Source: a virus (lineage: Duplodnaviria > Heunggongvirae > Uroviricota > Caudoviricetes). Taken from it: a DNA stretch of 27,241 bases. A program made the translations under genes and the position numbers. Position 1 is the stretch's first letter. Every line of letters begins with the position of its first letter. The stretch lies in the IMG/VR virus record IMGVR_UViG_3300026382_000007; one strand, given 5' to 3'. Below the pieces are notes generated by a model that worked only from the letters and a program-made list of their open reading frames with translations, ran no database searches and was not told the origin of the DNA. Of this stretch, positions 6,014-20,713 are shown one piece after another.

Positions 6014-6042
6014 GCAAGTCTTAAGCTAACTTACAGTATAAT
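6011..6042 (+). promoter_or_regulatory. Repeated phage promoter, copy 3
   Basis: TAAGC(6011)-N6-TAAGC(6022)-N10-TATAAT(6037); the first TAA is the upstream stop codon. Confidence 0.85.
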
Positions 6043-6069: not shown

Positions 6070-6546
6070 ATGAAATTCGTGCAATACTTAACAAGACAAA
6101 ACGGTGAGTTCGCTTACACCGAAAGAAATATAGTTGAAGTATATGATGCTGAAAAGCACAAAGATGTTGACTTTAGTGCTGATGCTGGTTGCATTATGAA
6201 CAACGATTGTTGGATGCATGTCGATAAAGTACTATATGCTATCGAGTTAATAGAAATCCCTGAGTGGATGGAACCTAAAGAATACGATGCTCTTACTTGG
6301 ATGCAATACACTCGTATTGGTGGAAATGAGGAACTTGGCAGAGAAACTTACAAAAAACTTACCGAATTTATCCTTAATGACGAAAGACTTGTAATTACTT
6401 GCCTAGTTCTTTTAAACACAAAGCGGTTTAGAAATGCATTTAGACAATCTTTAAGAGATCAAATTGTATCTTGGATCAACGGTGAGAATTCATATCCCAT
6501 ACCACTGACTCAGAAACAAAGACAATGTGTTGAAAGGAGATACTAA
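6070..6546 (+). CDS. Hypothetical protein
   Basis: 158 aa ORF after promoter and AAAGG RBS. Confidence 0.8.
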   Translation: MKFVQYLTRQNGEFAYTERNIVEVYDAEKHKDVDFSADAGCIMNNDCWMHVDKVLYAIELIEIPEWMEPKEYDALTWMQYTRIGGNEELGRETYKKLTEFILNDERLVITCLVLLNTKRFRNAFRQSLRDQIVSWINGENSYPIPLTQKQRQCVERRY

Positions 6547-6731
6547 TGACAAAGTGGGGTTTTTATATTGGTCAACGGATACAATATAAGGGGTTCAGTG
6601 GTCACAATCAAACTGCGTGGGTCGTAGATTTCACTGACAAATTTGTAGTGATCTCCGCTCATAGAGGCTCAAAGACGGATACGACCAGACGAAAACCATC
6701 TAATATACAAGGGGAAATCATTGAAAATTAA
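6546..6731 (+). CDS. Hypothetical small beta-rich protein
   Basis: 61 aa, TAATG coupling to the upstream gene. Confidence 0.6.
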   Translation: MTKWGFYIGQRIQYKGFSGHNQTAWVVDFTDKFVVISAHRGSKTDTTRRKPSNIQGEIIEN

Positions 6732-8454
6732 CTTCAAAAGAATTGGGTTTAAGAACATATTTTCATATGGGAACAAACTTACTGAATTTCATTTTGAAAA
6801 CGGTATAGATCTGGTCACTGGAAAGAATGGAAACGGTAAATCAACTTTCGTTGATGCACTGACATTCGCACTATTCGGGAAGCCTTTCCGTAAGATTAAA
6901 ATTGGAAACCTCATTAACAATAAGAACAACAAAGACCTTTGGGTTGAGGTTGAATTTGATGTTAATGGGAAAGACTTCAAGATTGTCAGAGGGCAAAAGC
7001 CTCAGATATTTGATATATATAAGATGGAGGGTGACGAATTCGTGAAGATGGAAGCACACTCAACTATCAAAGACCATCAAAAGTTCCTTGAAGACAATAT
7101 CTTACAATTCGGTGAATCTGTTTTTAGACAGCTCATCGCACTTGGTGCAAATCTCAGTTCATCGAGATCATTTATGGATCTCACAAAAGCTGAGAAAGAA
7201 GAAGTGCTCCAAGTCATAACTGACACGGCGATCTTTAATTCAATTAAAGAGAAAACTCGTGAACGAAAGTTGAGGCTCAAAACACAAGAAACTGACTTTG
7301 CTTATCAATCAAAGGTTCTCAAACAAAGCTTGGCTTCATCTAAGATTAATATCAAACAGATGGAACAGCAAAATACTGAATTCAGGACTAACAAAGACCG
7401 TGTCATTTTAGATATTGAGGCTGAGTTAGCACTGAAGCGGGAGAAAATACCACAGTATGTTTCGGCACTTAAAAAGTTAGATTTGATTAAGACCGAGCAC
7501 CACAAATTGGTTCGTAAGCTAGAACCGATCGAAGAAGCAACCGCTGAACTTGAGTCACAAAAGCGGGACTTAGAAGCTGATGCGAGGGCTTATGTCAAAA
7601 ATGAAAAAGACAAAATTGTGTGCCCTAAATGTTCTTTTGAAATGAAGAAAGATATGGGGTTCAGTGTCGACGAACTTAAAGATCAACTTAGACACCTCAG
7701 CACTAGAATCGCCGATATGAGCAGTGTAATTCTACCGCTTAGAAACGACATAGAAGCTATGAGGGTTCAACTGACAAACCAAAGTCGTATTGAGGCGAAC
7801 TCAAAGGCGATTAAACTTGAAATCAAGACACTTGAAACTCGTCTAGAAGAAACAAATGCATGGGTTGAGATTGACATCAACTACACTGAATTTGAAAAGA
7901 CTAGGCGAGATTATGACACTGTCAATGAAAGGCTTATAAAAGTCCGTGGGGATATTACTGACTTGGCAGACATAGAAAGTATGGTATCTGATAAGAACCT
8001 CAAGGGGATTATTCTTAATCAGCAACTACCATTCCTTAATAGGTTTATCAATGAGTTTTTAGAACTATTTGAATCAAAGTTCAACTTTGTGATTGATGAG
8101 GAGTTTCATGAAACTATCATCAGCAGAGGCTCCGATAATGAGTTCAACTCACTGTCAAACGGTCAAAAGCAACGGATCACAATGTCAATTTTATTTGCAT
8201 TTCTAAAGCTTATCGAAGAACGGAATGGTGTTAGTACAAATCTGTTAATCCTTGATGAATATCTTGACTCAAGCCTTGACATTGATGGGATTAACGAGAC
8301 ACTGAGAATACTTGATGAAGTATTTAGTGAGACTAAGGATGTGGTGTTAATATCACACAATCCTGACATTAAGAATAGATTTGAACTACTAAATCGTTCT
8401 TACAAAACAACTATGGTAGATGGGTTCAGCTCGTTTGACATAGAAAGCACTTAG
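6721..8454 (+). CDS. gp46: T4 gp46-like recombination ATPase (Rad50/SbcC family)
   Basis: Walker A GKNGNGKS, coiled coil with CPKC zinc hook, signature LSNGQ, Walker B LLILDE, D-loop SSLD, H-loop ISH; TTG start. Confidence 0.94.
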   Translation: MKINFKRIGFKNIFSYGNKLTEFHFENGIDLVTGKNGNGKSTFVDALTFALFGKPFRKIKIGNLINNKNNKDLWVEVEFDVNGKDFKIVRGQKPQIFDIYKMEGDEFVKMEAHSTIKDHQKFLEDNILQFGESVFRQLIALGANLSSSRSFMDLTKAEKEEVLQVITDTAIFNSIKEKTRERKLRLKTQETDFAYQSKVLKQSLASSKINIKQMEQQNTEFRTNKDRVILDIEAELALKREKIPQYVSALKKLDLIKTEHHKLVRKLEPIEEATAELESQKRDLEADARAYVKNEKDKIVCPKCSFEMKKDMGFSVDELKDQLRHLSTRIADMSSVILPLRNDIEAMRVQLTNQSRIEANSKAIKLEIKTLETRLEETNAWVEIDINYTEFEKTRRDYDTVNERLIKVRGDITDLADIESMVSDKNLKGIILNQQLPFLNRFINEFLELFESKFNFVIDEEFHETIISRGSDNEFNSLSNGQKQRITMSILFAFLKLIEERNGVSTNLLILDEYLDSSLDIDGINETLRILDEVFSETKDVVLISHNPDIKNRFELLNRSYKTTMVDGFSSFDIEST

Positions 8455-10255: not shown

Positions 10256-10604
10256 ACGATTCATCCAGAGGGTCGGTGAGGAAGGGATTCTCACTGCTGC
10301 TCGGTTTGGGAAGGCGGTTAAAGTCATTGACATAAGGGTGAATGGTGCTGTCAAAAAGCCACTTACCATTTTATTCAACGAAAATCACTTACAAGTTGAA
10401 GATACTCACATTATATTCGAAAGTCATGAAGCTGAGGTTCTTTTCTTACAAGATCTATACTTTGTTCTAGAAGAGTATAGTGAAATTCCCACAAAATCTC
10501 GTATAACCAACGGTCAGAAAGAAGTCACCATCGACCAGCTACTTGCTGAAGCTCGTAAAGATATTCAAAAAACATCACAAGGAGACATTGATGGCGAAAA
10601 ATAG
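10239..10604 (+). CDS. Hypothetical protein
   Basis: 121 aa ORF overlapping both neighbours by a few codons. Confidence 0.65.
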   Translation: MSNSYKRFIQRVGEEGILTAARFGKAVKVIDIRVNGAVKKPLTILFNENHLQVEDTHIIFESHEAEVLFLQDLYFVLEEYSEIPTKSRITNGQKEVTIDQLLAEARKDIQKTSQGDIDGEK

Positions 10605-11508
10605 TATGATTGACAGATTGTCAAAAAACAAAGCACTCAAAGAGAGTGTATTCACTAAGAATCAAGATGCTGAAATTGATTTCATCAACACGGGAGCACT
10701 GGTGCTTAATGTGTTATTCTCTGGCCGTTTACAAGGCGGAATTCCTGTTGGGAAGATCAGTTCAATTGCTGCTCCTTCAAGCTTAGGAAAGTCATTTGTT
10801 GGTATGAAAATTGCCAAAAACGCACAGAAAAAGGGTAAAGACTGGATTGTCATTTACATGGACACGGAAATGGCATTTGATTTTGATTTTGCTGATTCAA
10901 TTGGGATTGATCTTGATAGATTGCTGGTTATTCAAAATAACCACATTGAAGAAGTTCAAAAACAAATCATGGCAGTTACCGCTGAGTTCTCAAAAGAAGA
11001 ACGAAAAAAGGTTCTGATTGTTGTAGATTCATGGGGCGGTCTAGTTACCTCAAAAACTGTAGACGATGCCAAAACTGGTAAAGATGTTACGGATATGACT
11101 GTTGCTAAGAAAAAGAATACATTATCAAAACTAATGACTTCTTTGGGTGTTACTATTTTTGTTGTTAATCAAGTTTATGATTGTCAAGTTGCTGGTACTA
11201 TGGTAAAAACTGACTCCGGTGAGAAAGCAATTGAGGTGTTGAAAGAGGGAGACAAAGTTTTAACGACTGATGGTTTTCAAGATGTCTTAGAAACAGTTGA
11301 ACACGAGGATGCTCATATTTTTGAAATTGAGTTGGAAGATGGTTCAACGATAAAATGTACTGAGGGTCATAAGTTCATTATTAGAAATACATTGACTGAT
11401 TCTTTGGAATGGATCCCTGCAGGTGCTCTGTCCGAAAATATGGAAATTCTATGTGAAAGTGATTTAGAAGAGATAAAATCTAAAGAACTCGCCGAATATA
11501 CCTTGTAA
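10591..11508 (+). CDS. uvsX: UvsX/RecA recombinase N-terminal part fused to split intein N-half (IntN)
   Basis: GGAG RBS and ATG 10591; INTGALVLN, Walker A APSSLGKS, DTE, VDSWGGL, VNQVYD, then intein block A (CQVAGTMV) and block B (CTEGHKF); TAA at 11506-11508. Confidence 0.92.
   Translation: MAKNSMIDRLSKNKALKESVFTKNQDAEIDFINTGALVLNVLFSGRLQGGIPVGKISSIAAPSSLGKSFVGMKIAKNAQKKGKDWIVIYMDTEMAFDFDFADSIGIDLDRLLVIQNNHIEEVQKQIMAVTAEFSKEERKKVLIVVDSWGGLVTSKTVDDAKTGKDVTDMTVAKKKNTLSKLMTSLGVTIFVVNQVYDCQVAGTMVKTDSGEKAIEVLKEGDKVLTTDGFQDVLETVEHEDAHIFEIELEDGSTIKCTEGHKFIIRNTLTDSLEWIPAGALSENMEILCESDLEEIKSKELAEYTL
11182..11505 (+). mobile_element. Split intein N-fragment (108 aa)
   Basis: Starts with Cys1; I..LK.GDKVLT, FEIELEDGSTIKCTEGHKF, W..A..L HINT motifs; ends in an acidic tail and stop. 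Confidence 0.9.
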
Positions 11509-11975
11509 ATTTCATTATCATCATCTACGAAGGGGAAAACATATGATGAAATCTACGGTGATGATGAGTTCATTAGAAACAAGAAAATTGCTATGAGTGA
11601 AAAACAGAAAGGTGTTAAAAAGACACAAGAAGTTATTCAGCGAATGGTAAATAATCATTGGTCATTGAGGATGAAAAATACTTGGTCTTCGTATAAGAAA
11701 GGTTCCAAGCTCTCTGATGAAACTATTCGAAAAATATCGGATGGGACAAAGTTGTTTTGGGACAATGATGATGAACTTAAAAAGAAGTTTTCGGAAAGAA
11801 ACAAGGGCTCGAAAAATCCAAATTTTGGGAAAAAGCACACTGATGAAGCTAAGAAAAAATGTCAGAAGCTTCAAAGGTATTGGTAAAATGTCCTCACTGT
11901 GGGACAGAAACAACAAGAGGTCCGGCAAAAAGATGGCACTTCGAAAATTGTAAAAGGAAATGTGATGAAAATTAA
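11509..11975 (+). pseudogene. Degenerate homing-endonuclease remnant (NUMOD3 repeats plus CPHC Zn finger), frameshifted, no catalytic domain
   Basis: KGKTYDEIYG, KLSDETIRKIS, KNPNFGKKHTDEAKKK; one extra A in the run at 11854-11859 continues as MSEASKVLVKCPHCGTETTRGPAKRWHFENCK, stop 11973-11975. Confidence 0.75.
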
Positions 11976-12069
11976 AAAAATAAAACAACTCAAAGACAGG
12001 GAAAATGTATATGATATAAGAACTGAAAGTCATAACTACATTATGACTAATGGTGTGGTATCACATAAC
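11965..12069 (+). mobile_element. Split intein C-fragment (35 aa)
   Basis: Block F VYDI..ESHNY, block G NGVVSHN, +1 Thr; basic N-terminus. Confidence 0.92.
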
Positions 12070-12552
12070 ACGATGGACCAATATAACCCATTAGCAATTG
12101 CAGGTGGTCGTGGTTTATACTTTGCTTGTTCAAGCATTGTACTTGGTTCTTCAAAATCAAGACATAAGGCTACACAATCAGATACTGAAGTTCTGGGAGC
12201 ATTGATCTTAGCAACTACTAAAAAGTCACGGTTCTGTAAAGAACTCACGAAACTCAGATATCTAATCAAGTATGAGGGCGGAATTCATCCTTACTACGGG
12301 CTTATGGAAGATGCACTAGAGGGCGGTTATATTGACAAGCCATCTATGGGCTACTATTCACGACCTTGTGTAACTGGTGATAAAAAGTGGCGAGAAAGAG
12401 AGGTATGGGACAATGCTAAAGAGTTCTGGACACCGATCTTAACTGACACCGATTTCGCTTGGTACATCGAGAAAAAGTACACATTTATGCATTCACAGCT
12501 AGATGATGAAGACTTTGACATCGATATGGCTAAATTACCAAAGTCTGAGTAA
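11965..12552 (+). CDS. uvsX: Split intein C-half (IntC) fused to UvsX/RecA C-terminal part
   Basis: AAAGGA RBS and ATG 11965; MKIKKIK...VYDIRTESHNYIMTNGVVSHN/T, then MDQYNPLAIAGGRGLYFACS, KKSRF, GGIHPYYGL typical of UvsX. Confidence 0.92.
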   Translation: MKIKKIKQLKDRENVYDIRTESHNYIMTNGVVSHNTMDQYNPLAIAGGRGLYFACSSIVLGSSKSRHKATQSDTEVLGALILATTKKSRFCKELTKLRYLIKYEGGIHPYYGLMEDALEGGYIDKPSMGYYSRPCVTGDKKWREREVWDNAKEFWTPILTDTDFAWYIEKKYTFMHSQLDDEDFDIDMAKLPKSE

Positions 12553-12555
12553 CTT

Positions 12556-12587
12556 TAAGCAAGCTCTAAGCTTGTTTTAGGTATAAT
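12556..12587 (+). promoter_or_regulatory. Repeated phage promoter, copy 4
   Basis: TAAGC(12556)-N6-TAAGC(12567)-N10-TATAAT(12582). Confidence 0.85.
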
Positions 12588-12617
12588 ATAGTATATCAAA
12601 AGTAAAAAGGCACTAAG

Positions 12618-12821
12618 GTGACTGAAAACAAATTTAACAAAATGTTACAATCACTGGGCTTCATCACCCAGGAGTTAGAAGCGGATGGAATGGAAGTTGA
12701 TGATTCAATTGTTTATGAAATTGCTGCTAATGTGATGAGAGAATACTCCGGTGTTGAAAAATACCTTTTGGATAAGTTTGGTGTCAGTGATGCACAGTGC
12801 TGGATTGCAGATAGAATTTAA
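12618..12821 (+). CDS. Hypothetical acidic protein
   Basis: 67 aa, GTG start after promoter and AAAGG. Confidence 0.7.
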   Translation: MTENKFNKMLQSLGFITQELEADGMEVDDSIVYEIAANVMREYSGVEKYLLDKFGVSDAQCWIADRI

Positions 12822-16810: not shown

Positions 16811-18325
16811 ATGGCAAAACAATATGAAATGTCTTGGAGAAGTGGTACTGACTACTTCTGTAGAACAAGAGATACTGAAACAAATGAAGTCAGTTTTGAA
16901 AAGATAGACCCTGAATGGGAGTTTTATGAAAGATCTAACGGTGGTGAGTTTTCATCACTACTGGACAAATCAGTTCAACTACAACCTCGTATTTTCAATG
17001 ATACAAAATCTCAAAAAGAGTACACTGGTATGATGGACACTTTGGGTCGCGAAGTATTTGGTGGACAAAGACCTGAATACCATCACATTCGTAAAAACTA
17101 TTGGAACAATGGTCTTGTAAGTGAAATGAGAATCTGGTTCTTCGATATTGAAGTAATTAAAGCTGGTGATTATGCATTCCCTGATGCCCAAAAGGCTGAA
17201 AAGCCAGTTACACAAATTCAGATACTAGATTCTTACACTGATAAGATTATCATCATTAGTACGGATAATATGAAAGAGCCTGAGAAGTTCAAGAAATGGG
17301 GAGACCAACTGGTTTTCAAATATGTTGAATCTGAAAAAGCTCTTTTTAATATGTTCTTCAAATTACTTGAGGGGCTGAAGCCTACTGTGCTCACCGCATG
17401 GGGTGGTGACAACTTTGACTTTCCATACTTAACACACCGTGCCATGAAATTAGATGGTGTGAATTATCGTCGTCTTAGCCCTATTAATAAGGTCAGTCAG
17501 ATCCGTTCAATGGGTACTGATAAGAACTATAAATGGGAGGGATTGTACTTAATTGATATGATGGAAGCCTATAAGAAGTTCACATTTACACCGCAAACTT
17601 CGTACAGTCTTGATAACATTGCTAAAGAAGAACTTGGTCTCGGTGAGGGAAAAGTGAACTATGGTGAATTCGATAACATTATTGATTTTCATGATAATGA
17701 TATTGATAAGTTCCTTGAGTATTCTATCATGGATGTTGTAATTCTTAAAAAGCTTGAAGATAAAATCAAGCTTGTCGCTCTTATGCAAATCCTGTCAGTA
17801 ATGATGGGATGTAATATGGAAGACTCGATGGGGACGGTTAATCCTTGGACTCAATACCTGACAAATCTCGGTTATGAGAAACAACTGGTTATGCCGTACA
17901 ATAAACACGGTTCACTGGATAAGACAATTATCGGTGGATATGTCCGTGACCCGAAAAAAGGTAAACATGAATGGTTGGCTTCAATCGATGTCAACTCAAT
18001 GTATCCTCTATTAGGAATGCGTGCTTTCAATATGAGCCCCGAAACTTATATCGAAGAATACAAAATGCCAGCTGATCTTTTAGCTCTGAGAAACAGACTT
18101 CATACTCACGAAGATGAGAATGTTTATCTTGATGAAAGTCTACTTGAAGAGATTAAAGAAATGTGTCACAAATATGATGTGGCTTATGGTATGAATGCTT
18201 TCTTTATGAGAGATGAGGAAGGAATTATCCCTGAAAGGGTTGCTGACATTTACTCAACTCGTAAAGAAGCCAAACGAAAAATGCTTATGTATAAAGCATT
18301 CAAAGCTCGACTCAAGGTGACATAA
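16811..18325 (+). CDS. gp43: Family B DNA polymerase N-terminal half (gp43A: exonuclease, motif A, first fingers helix)
   Basis: ExoI FFDIEV, ExoII FDFPY, SYSLDNIA, ExoIII YSIMDV, GGYV, motif A DVNSMYP, GIIP..V..IY..RK..K, then stop. Confidence 0.95.
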   Translation: MAKQYEMSWRSGTDYFCRTRDTETNEVSFEKIDPEWEFYERSNGGEFSSLLDKSVQLQPRIFNDTKSQKEYTGMMDTLGREVFGGQRPEYHHIRKNYWNNGLVSEMRIWFFDIEVIKAGDYAFPDAQKAEKPVTQIQILDSYTDKIIIISTDNMKEPEKFKKWGDQLVFKYVESEKALFNMFFKLLEGLKPTVLTAWGGDNFDFPYLTHRAMKLDGVNYRRLSPINKVSQIRSMGTDKNYKWEGLYLIDMMEAYKKFTFTPQTSYSLDNIAKEELGLGEGKVNYGEFDNIIDFHDNDIDKFLEYSIMDVVILKKLEDKIKLVALMQILSVMMGCNMEDSMGTVNPWTQYLTNLGYEKQLVMPYNKHGSLDKTIIGGYVRDPKKGKHEWLASIDVNSMYPLLGMRAFNMSPETYIEEYKMPADLLALRNRLHTHEDENVYLDESLLEEIKEMCHKYDVAYGMNAFFMRDEEGIIPERVADIYSTRKEAKRKMLMYKAFKARLKVT

Positions 18326-19501: not shown

Positions 19502-20713
19502 TTGAAACTTTCCATAGAAGAGGTTTTTGCTAAGATTGATTCAGGGGAAATGACCATAGATGTCATCAATAACTCGGATTGGTCTCATATAGAAGATGTC
19601 AATTTTGATGCACTTGATTCAAAAATTGCATACTTTGATACCCTACAAATGGCACTGAAAATTGCGATGAACTCCTTGTATGGAGCACTTGCAAATGTTC
19701 ACTTTCCATTATTCAATCGTGACATTGCTGCGAGCATTACTGGAAACGGTCGCATCTTTATTCAAGGGCTTGCAACTTACATTAACGGAAAGCTACAACA
19801 AGCACTTAATTCAAAGGCGAACTTCGTAGTTTACGGTGATACCGATTCAGTTTACTTCACTCTACAGGAATTAGTTGATAAGATTTCAACTAAAGATCCG
19901 AGTCTAGACACTGCTGGACTATTGGATAAGATTTTAAGCTTCGATAAAAAGCTTCTGGACCCATGGGTCCAGGAGTATATTGATAAATATGCTGATGACT
20001 TTAACGCATTCAATAAAGATCCTATTGGGGCAAAACTTGAAAAAATTGCTGATAAGGGTATTTTCATTGCTAAAAAGAAATACGCACTGAGAGCAGTTTG
20101 GGATGAGGGTTCATTCCTCGTTGAAAATCCTAAAATGGCTGTAACTGGGCTTGAAATCGTAAGATCTTCAACACCTATGTTTTGTCGTAAAGAGCTAAAA
20201 AAGGTCATTGATATTATCATGGACCATGACGAGCGATCTGTAGTTGACTTTATCAAAACTGCTGAAGAGGGCTGGTACAAGGCTTCAATTAATGACCTGA
20301 GTCGTGTAAGTGGTATCGGAAGCCTGAGTTATGATGGTGTTCCTGGATCACTTTTCAAAATTGATGATAAGGGTGATTTTGAACTTAATAAGAACGGTCG
20401 TAAACTATCCGCTCCTATGAATGTTCGTGCTGCGATGAACTATAATATGTTTATTGAAGAGCACAACATGAAAAGTTATCCGAAACTGACAACTGACGAC
20501 AAGATCAAATATGTGTTCCTGACTACACCAAACACTCTGGGTGATGATGTGGTTGGGTTTTTAGATGAGCAATTCATACACGATGCAAACCTACTAAGAT
20601 TTGTAGACAAGTCTCGTATGTGGGAAGGATTCTTCATGAGTCCGCTGAATATCATGCTTGATGCTGTTGAATATGATATTAATACTAATTTCGAGGTTGA
20701 TGAATGGTTGTAA
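19502..20713 (+). CDS. gp43: Family B DNA polymerase C-terminal half (gp43B: motifs B and C, thumb)
   Basis: AGGAGG RBS and TTG start; QMALKIAMNSLYG, SITGNGR, YGDTDSVY, KKKYA, GLEIVRSSTP. Confidence 0.95.
   Translation: MKLSIEEVFAKIDSGEMTIDVINNSDWSHIEDVNFDALDSKIAYFDTLQMALKIAMNSLYGALANVHFPLFNRDIAASITGNGRIFIQGLATYINGKLQQALNSKANFVVYGDTDSVYFTLQELVDKISTKDPSLDTAGLLDKILSFDKKLLDPWVQEYIDKYADDFNAFNKDPIGAKLEKIADKGIFIAKKKYALRAVWDEGSFLVENPKMAVTGLEIVRSSTPMFCRKELKKVIDIIMDHDERSVVDFIKTAEEGWYKASINDLSRVSGIGSLSYDGVPGSLFKIDDKGDFELNKNGRKLSAPMNVRAAMNYNMFIEEHNMKSYPKLTTDDKIKYVFLTTPNTLGDDVVGFLDEQFIHDANLLRFVDKSRMWEGFFMSPLNIMLDAVEYDINTNFEVDEWL

Follow-up and report, generated by a model that had tools for sequence, protein, structure and literature searches.

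A uvsX gene fractured at its DNA-binding loop: split intein halves flanking a decayed homing endonuclease gene in an uncultured phage

Fractured genes were described from ocean metagenomes by Dassa, London, Stoddard, Schueler-Furman and Pietrokovski (Dassa et al. 2009; PMC2677866), who reported gp41-1 to -9, NrdJ-1, NrdA-2 and IMPDH-1. In such loci two adjacent ORFs (open reading frames) on the same strand carry intein halves of opposite charge at the break, and a free-standing GIY-YIG/NUMOD endonuclease gene lies between the halves; the gp41-7 locus is without an endonuclease. The fractured hosts in that study are gp41, NrdA, NrdJ, IMPDH, DnaE, ligase and terminase, whereas UvsX is mentioned only as the product of a neighbouring gene. 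Here we analysed a stretch of 27,241 nucleotides (the window) of the IMG/VR virus record IMGVR_UViG_3300026382_000007, an uncultured phage of the Caudoviricetes whose sequence of 154,998 bp has direct terminal repeats and is rated 100% complete. Its uvsX gene is interrupted by the two halves of a canonically split intein. Window coordinates are used throughout, and handles such as L082, L083, L084, L086 and L094 denote related viral contigs. We consider it highly probable that the products of the fractured uvsX gene are joined by this intein in trans, and that the endonuclease that belonged to the same cassette has decayed in the window.

The locus is a further case of the class of Dassa et al. 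and involves no new mechanism. It shares with the described loci the two adjacent ORFs on one strand, the oppositely charged intein halves at the break and a host that is a phage replication or repair enzyme, and the layout with a free-standing endonuclease gene between the halves is still intact in its relative L094. It differs from them in that the endonuclease is half-decayed rather than intact or absent: where the class has a free-standing gene, the window holds only a remnant. Moreover, UvsX is new to the list of hosts. The cyanobacterial DnaE split inteins of Npu and Ssp resemble the one in the window in their canonical split at the endonuclease site, the lack of a working endonuclease, an acidic N half and a basic C half. 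However, the two DnaE halves are encoded at distant genome positions and are followed by Cys+1, whereas those in the window are 456 bp apart, probably on one transcript, and use Thr+1. Our literature search found no description of a canonical split intein in uvsX.

The N-terminal part of uvsX is a plus-strand ORF at 10591-11508, preceded 6 nt upstream of its ATG (10591) by a Shine-Dalgarno-like AGGAG (10580..10584) read directly from the sequence. It encodes 305 residues and ends with TAA (11506-11508). Residues 1-197 (10591..11181) are the N-extein, which contains the Walker A motif (...SSLGKS...), ends with ...VNQVYD and is matched by Pfam RecA (E 4.5e-16) and by the PHROG UvsX-like recombinase (E 1.1e-41). 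The remainder is the N-terminal intein half (IntN, 11182..11508; 108 amino acids plus the stop). It starts with Cys1 (residue 198), contains block B (T257-E-G-H260), has an acidic tail and a net charge of -17, and is matched by the Pfam models Hint_2, Intein_splicing and Hint. Downstream of a gap of 456 bp (11509-11964), the C-terminal part is encoded on the same strand at 11965-12552, with a Shine-Dalgarno-like AAGGAA (11954..11959), likewise visible in the sequence, 5 nt upstream of its ATG (11965), and with TAA at 12550-12552. It opens with the 35-residue C-terminal intein half (IntC, 11965..12069), which is basic (net charge +3), carries block F (VYDI) and block G (NGVVSHN) and corresponds to positions 122-155 of the 155 positions of Pfam Intein_splicing (E 3.2e-06). 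The C-extein follows at 12070..12552 (Thr+1 and 159 residues, 160 in total, plus TAA). It continues after the Thr with MDQYNPLAIAGG... and is matched by Pfam T4_UVSX_C (E 2.3e-06). An earlier reading of the locus, made from the sequence alone and referred to here as the sequence-only reading, had listed the VNQVYD end, the 108-residue IntN with its Cys1, TxxH block and acidic tail, the second ribosome-binding site with its ATG, the 35-residue IntC ending in HN and the Thr. All of these were exact to the base, but a remnant of an endonuclease gene in the 456-bp gap had been overlooked.

Compared with the uninterrupted UvsX of L086 (348 residues), the two halves align with residues 1-197 (75% identity) and 195-346 (71% identity). 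Since intein-less relatives read VNQVYD-SMSQFDPLAIGGG across the junction, splicing would yield a UvsX of 357 residues (197 + 160), which is the length of the intein-less L084 protein. The intein-less homologue matches T4 UvsX (3io5, E 1.6e-35), the phage recombinases 7z3m and 9gbg, and E. coli RecA. All features of a UvsX recombinase are present, namely a RecA core with Walker A, an NQ motif before L2 and a C-terminal domain of the T4 UvsX type. The break lies 3 residues past the NQ motif, where the segment aligned with E. coli RecA ...MKIGVMFGNPETTTGG begins; we take this segment to be the DNA-binding loop L2. A search of the 100%-complete genome with the L086 homologue matched only the two uvsX pieces and no second uvsX/recA homologue; recombination in this phage would therefore presumably depend on splicing, as the sequence-only reading had proposed.

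A trivial explanation for two such ORFs would be that the intein is contiguous, either because the stops are sequencing errors or because TAA is read through, resulting in a single precursor of 653 residues. Indeed, the N-part, the gap and the C-part are all in one frame in the window, with only two in-frame TAA codons, at 11506 and 11887. We therefore compared the region with Logan contigs of three hydrothermal-vent metagenome runs. These cover 10400-12584 (word depths 26, 88 and 22) without a single difference or gap, and they are identical across both stops, so that the stops are not assembly errors. Because these runs may be the source samples of the record, their agreement rules out a one-off assembly slip but falls short of fully independent proof. 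Relatives with this two-gene layout lend independent support, their gaps being in other reading frames: in both L083 and L082 the gap is out of frame, and the shared frame in the window is thus a 1-in-3 coincidence. The zinc-finger piece of the endonuclease remnant (see below) is also encoded in another frame. Read-through of TAA was rejected as well. TAA is the commonest stop codon of long ORFs in this genome (70 of 113), it also terminates uvsX itself, and there is no suppressor among the 26 tRNA genes. Taken together, a contiguous intein is extremely improbable. The tRNA genes form a cluster at genome positions 61529-70119, and the G+C content of the genome is 37%. In a fourth run (X4, 2025, from another study) we found only low-depth fragments, among them a contig of depth 2.1 with a 2-nt deletion at 11536, within the endonuclease remnant. 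This deletion would fit neutral decay, or it may be an error.

Since the products of the two uvsX genes carry split-intein halves, UvsX is most likely stitched together as a protein. All residues of class-1 splicing chemistry are present (Cys1, TxxH, VYD, the terminal HN and Thr+1). C198 (Cys1) and H260 of block B are invariant in 14 divergent N-parts with an intein at the same insertion point (27-57% identical), and V15, Y16, D17, N29, G30, H34 and N35 of IntC are invariant in an alignment of four C-parts. A translation across both stops reaches 43.3 bits with Pfam Intein_splicing, above the cut-off of 35.8. Among solved chains, the gp41-1 intein (6qaz) is nearest to IntN (E 8.6e-07), and IntC is most like that of Npu DnaE, although weakly (E 0.016). 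The split is canonical, with the break between blocks B and F and the halves on separate ORFs that have their own translation signals. We also predicted the complex that IntN, extended by 8 extein residues, would form with IntC, extended by 10. The score was 0.67, compared to 0.02 for the best control. Of 80 solved complexes, 58 attained this mark, as did 2 of 110 mismatched pairs; the runs concur in at least 93% of the contacts, and the confidence for the partner (pLDDT) is at least 68. Because complexes of split inteins are in the structure bank, this result may reflect likeness to them and does not amount to proof of binding.

These observations would be explained by the following sequence of events. 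The uvsX halves, on one strand and 456 bp apart, would probably be cotranscribed, since no copy of the promoter-like box of this genome lies between them, and each would be translated from its own ribosome-binding site. The acidic N-intein of 108 residues and the basic C-intein of 35 residues would then associate to form one HINT domain. Class-1 splicing would proceed from the Cys1 thioester via attack by Thr+1 and cyclisation of the terminal Asn to the O-to-N shift. This would join ...NQVYD to TMDQYNPLAIAGG... and release a UvsX of 357 residues with an intact L2 loop.

Alternatively, the intein halves could merely tether the two UvsX fragments to each other, with no peptide bond being formed. 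The recombinase would then consist of two non-covalently associated chains, as has been reported for NrdA of phage Aeh1, which is split without an intein. The halves are indeed predicted to bind each other, intein-less split genes are known in T4-like phages (PMC2677866), and the phage studied here itself tolerates a DNA polymerase that is split without an intein. But a dimerisation tag would have no need for Cys1, TxxH, the block F Asp, the terminal HN and Thr+1, all of which are kept and are invariant in distant relatives. Furthermore, if it were not removed from the L2 loop, the HINT domain of 143 residues would be located on the DNA-binding face of the protein. We therefore regard a non-covalent enzyme as unlikely and trans-splicing as the best-supported mechanism for what is a real, well preserved and, judged by its sequence, very probably functional split intein.

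Some points nevertheless weigh against this interpretation. Splicing itself is deduced from sequence features. As a nucleophile at position +1, Thr generally reacts more slowly than Cys or Ser. The three confirming runs may, as mentioned above, be the samples from which the record itself derives, and the test for selection described below is coarse, since the synonymous divergence (dS) is saturated. Moreover, the other N-inteins at this insertion point share only 31-37% identity with that of the window, compared to about 69% for the exteins, so that the activity of this intein cannot simply be transferred from its relatives.

The gap between the uvsX halves is not empty. Directly after the IntN stop, 125 codons in the uvsX frame (11509..11886, plus strand) encode a linker and DNA-binding repeats with two NUMOD3 motifs, without a catalytic domain; the longest ORF in this piece that starts with ATG is 11593-11886 (97 amino acids). 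It is matched by Pfam NUMOD3 (E 8.6e-12) and by the PHROG homing endonuclease families 314 and 655. Its residues 2-50 align with residues 91-138 of an intact GIY-YIG endonuclease of 298 residues encoded on L094 (E 3e-07), in which the Pfam GIY-YIG domain spans residues 5-84. A second piece (11859..11975, plus strand) overlaps the end of the first in another frame. It is an ORF of 38 codons that encodes a C-terminal zinc finger, CPHCG...WHFENC, and its stop overlaps the start of IntC by 11 nt, as in Vibrio phage EniLVp02. In that phage, residues 250-283 of the 284-residue endonuclease within uvsX share 51% identity (E 1e-10) with the zinc finger, which also matches the C-terminus of the L003 endonuclease (E 5e-07). 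Because the first piece aligns past the GIY-YIG domain of the L094 protein and the zinc finger is frameshifted, the gap is a decayed homing endonuclease gene, minus its catalytic head and upstream spacer and plus a frameshift. No GIY-YIG domain was found anywhere in the genome, so none acts in trans. The Pfam GIY-YIG domain was likewise not detected in the endonucleases of EniLVp02 and L003, both of which are classed as homing endonucleases by PHROGs. We suggest that the split intein arrived together with a free-standing GIY-YIG homing endonuclease, in the layout still intact in L094, and that the endonuclease of this phage later lost its catalytic domain and gained a frameshift. The intein halves would have been kept, since only their exact removal would restore uvsX.

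Decay in the gap also raises the possibility that uvsX as a whole is a dead gene, which a mobile cassette disrupted and which now decays together with the endonuclease. The missing catalytic domain, the frameshift and the additional 2-nt deletion in the low-depth contig of the fourth run would fit such a scenario. However, decay is confined to the gap, while both uvsX ORFs are intact with ribosome-binding site, start and stop. The genome contains no second recombinase, and three relatives keep the same layout. In addition, among the window, L082 and L083 the proportion of nonsynonymous differences (pN, 0.11-0.44) is far below that of synonymous differences (pS, 0.64-0.85) in every partition, that is, in the exteins and in both intein halves; due to the saturated dS, this does not provide a reliable ratio. 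A dead gene is therefore very unlikely.

The insertion point of the window (...NQVY[DA], followed by Cys1; site a) and the layout with two ORFs are common to the window, L082, L083 and L094. L094 encodes UvsX-N with IntN (290 residues), its intact endonuclease and IntC with UvsX-C, the latter with Ser+1. L083 (a 110-kb contig) and L082 have the same split with gaps of 91 and 128 bp, from which the endonuclease is absent. In L084, L086 and about fifteen other close relatives, uvsX is uninterrupted. A purine-rich run resembling a Shine-Dalgarno sequence precedes the IntC start at all four split loci. Identity among the window, L082 and L083 is 67-71% in the exteins, 56-85% in IntC and 31-51% in IntN. 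The window N-intein has no close relative at all: its best matches, drawn alike from all three insertion sites described below, reach 35-46% identity. Searches for related loci with the N-part alone or the remnant alone gave no confirmed relatives, and blastn of the locus against GenBank phages gave no match. Together these loci form a natural series at one insertion point, from the empty site to the split intein with a live endonuclease, with a headless one and, finally, alone. This is the pathway that Dassa et al. proposed for the fixation of split inteins.

The sequence-only reading had considered UvsX an unusual intein host and the Cys1/Thr+1 junction an unusual combination. A class-1 intein, split by nature into halves of complementary charge and located where the L2 loop begins, was borne out, but neither of these two notions was. 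An exhaustive HMMER search with the N-part returned 5,296 relatives, and the following counts refer to the best 151 representatives. An N-intein is present in this loop in 92 of them. Cys1 could be placed in 91 of these proteins, of which 70 terminate within 130 residues after it and are for this reason counted as split, while 21 continue. Split inteins of this loop thus occur in dozens of metagenomic protein clusters. They fall into at least three recurring insertion points: the first, that of the window, one residue after the motif N[HQ]xY (24 split, 3 longer forms, and 3 more split directly after the motif), the second four residues past the motif and the third after ...GG at the far end of the loop. 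As for the junction, the residue at +1 is Ser in the intein-bearing relatives at the window's site. Since intein-less relatives carry Ser or Thr at this position, Thr+1 is ordinary extein variation.

Split uvsX inteins are also present in cultured T4-like phages. Based on records with IntN matches inside RecA-like genes, we counted at least 13 distinct phages. They include Klebsiella phage vB_KpnM_Lion_ER11, Vibrio phage EniLVp02 and Proteus phage Pm5461, all Straboviridae with a Cys1/Thr+1 intein at the ...GG site. Their genes have been annotated only as 'DNA repair protein / homing endonuclease / recombinase'. Like the window, these phages have a canonical split intein in uvsX (IntN about 95 residues, IntC 35 residues) with Cys1 and Thr+1, and their endonuclease gene, which lies between the halves, likewise encodes a terminal CPHCG...WHF[DE]NC finger, its stop overlapping the IntC start. 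In contrast to the window, their endonuclease is intact, the insertion lies 13-14 residues further on, and the exteins are only about 30-35% identical to those of the window. No cultured phage record matched across the window's own junction. What is particular to the window is therefore an insertion point not seen in cultured phages and a half-decayed endonuclease. In a second UvsX clade, the ...GG site is occupied by a contiguous mini-intein in L008 (493 residues) and by a split intein with an intact endonuclease of 289 residues in L003.

UvsX, on which homing itself depends, hereby joins the fractured hosts, and its DNA-binding loop has been hit repeatedly. A bolder interpretation would be that the L2 loop is a previously undescribed intein hot spot, with at least three insertion points in about 15 residues and the split form predominant, and that the window intein is a separate lineage at the first point that has outlived its endonuclease and is possibly efficient and orthogonal to gp41-1 and Npu DnaE. 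We put this forward tentatively and rather doubt that it holds in full. A use as an orthogonal ligation tool is possible, and protein-ligation screens gain a further candidate Cys1/Thr+1 split-intein pair whose C half is short.

Inteins also occur elsewhere in UvsX. The atypically split VidaL inteins, with an N fragment of 16 residues, reportedly come from a Lake Vida metagenome UvsX, a host that we did not find confirmed in the literature. They are split after strand beta-2 and inserted at the P-loop rather than at L2, so that they differ from the window intein while their host is possibly the same protein. In L082 (192-1334), UvsX appears to be in three pieces, the first of which lies beyond the contig end. 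The middle ORF opens with a C-intein-like segment of ~130 residues that ends ...HHN/SF at the P-loop (GKS/F; a slash marks the junction). This segment would be part of an atypically split intein with a very short N fragment, in addition to the split intein at site a; its long IntC piece at the P-loop corresponds to a VidaL-like arrangement. L114 (3498-5057) encodes a UvsX of 519 residues with a contiguous intein at the P-loop (...SSLGK/C...LNHN/SF) and none at the L2 site, where it has Thr at the position equivalent to +1 of the window. On L003, a 208-kb viral contig, a gp41-type helicase ORF (6529-7914) beside the fractured uvsX ends with a tail resembling an N-intein (...SE/CIYVKE...), which suggests two fractured genes side by side. 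In Proteus phage Pm5461 (L092, 3121-4500), a gene annotated as 'Hef-like homing endonuclease' directly follows the second uvsX half, so that this locus has two endonuclease genes.

The promoter-like box referred to above (TAAG...TATAAT) has 9 matches in the window, compared to 0.59 expected by chance, at 2845, 6022, 12555-12611, 16771, 18414, 23103, 23855 and 25191. The plus-strand copies that flank uvsX are at 6022-6042 and, directly downstream of the gene, at 12567..12587 (TAAGC...TATAAT); hence neither uvsX nor its gap holds one. A scan of the locus for sigma-70 promoters and terminators gave no more hits than in shuffled sequence. Assembly contigs break at the box, and the word depth rises about 9-fold at 12556-12632.

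The family-B DNA polymerase of this phage is likewise encoded by two ORFs, 16811-18325 (504 residues) and 19502-20713 (403 residues), which are about 1.2 kb apart with small ORFs in between. No intein motifs are visible at the polymerase break, and the search of the genome found only the one intein, in uvsX. The two polymerase ORFs match positions 9-488 and 499-845 of a single PHROG profile, an arrangement that resembles the split gp43 of some Aeromonas T4-like phages.

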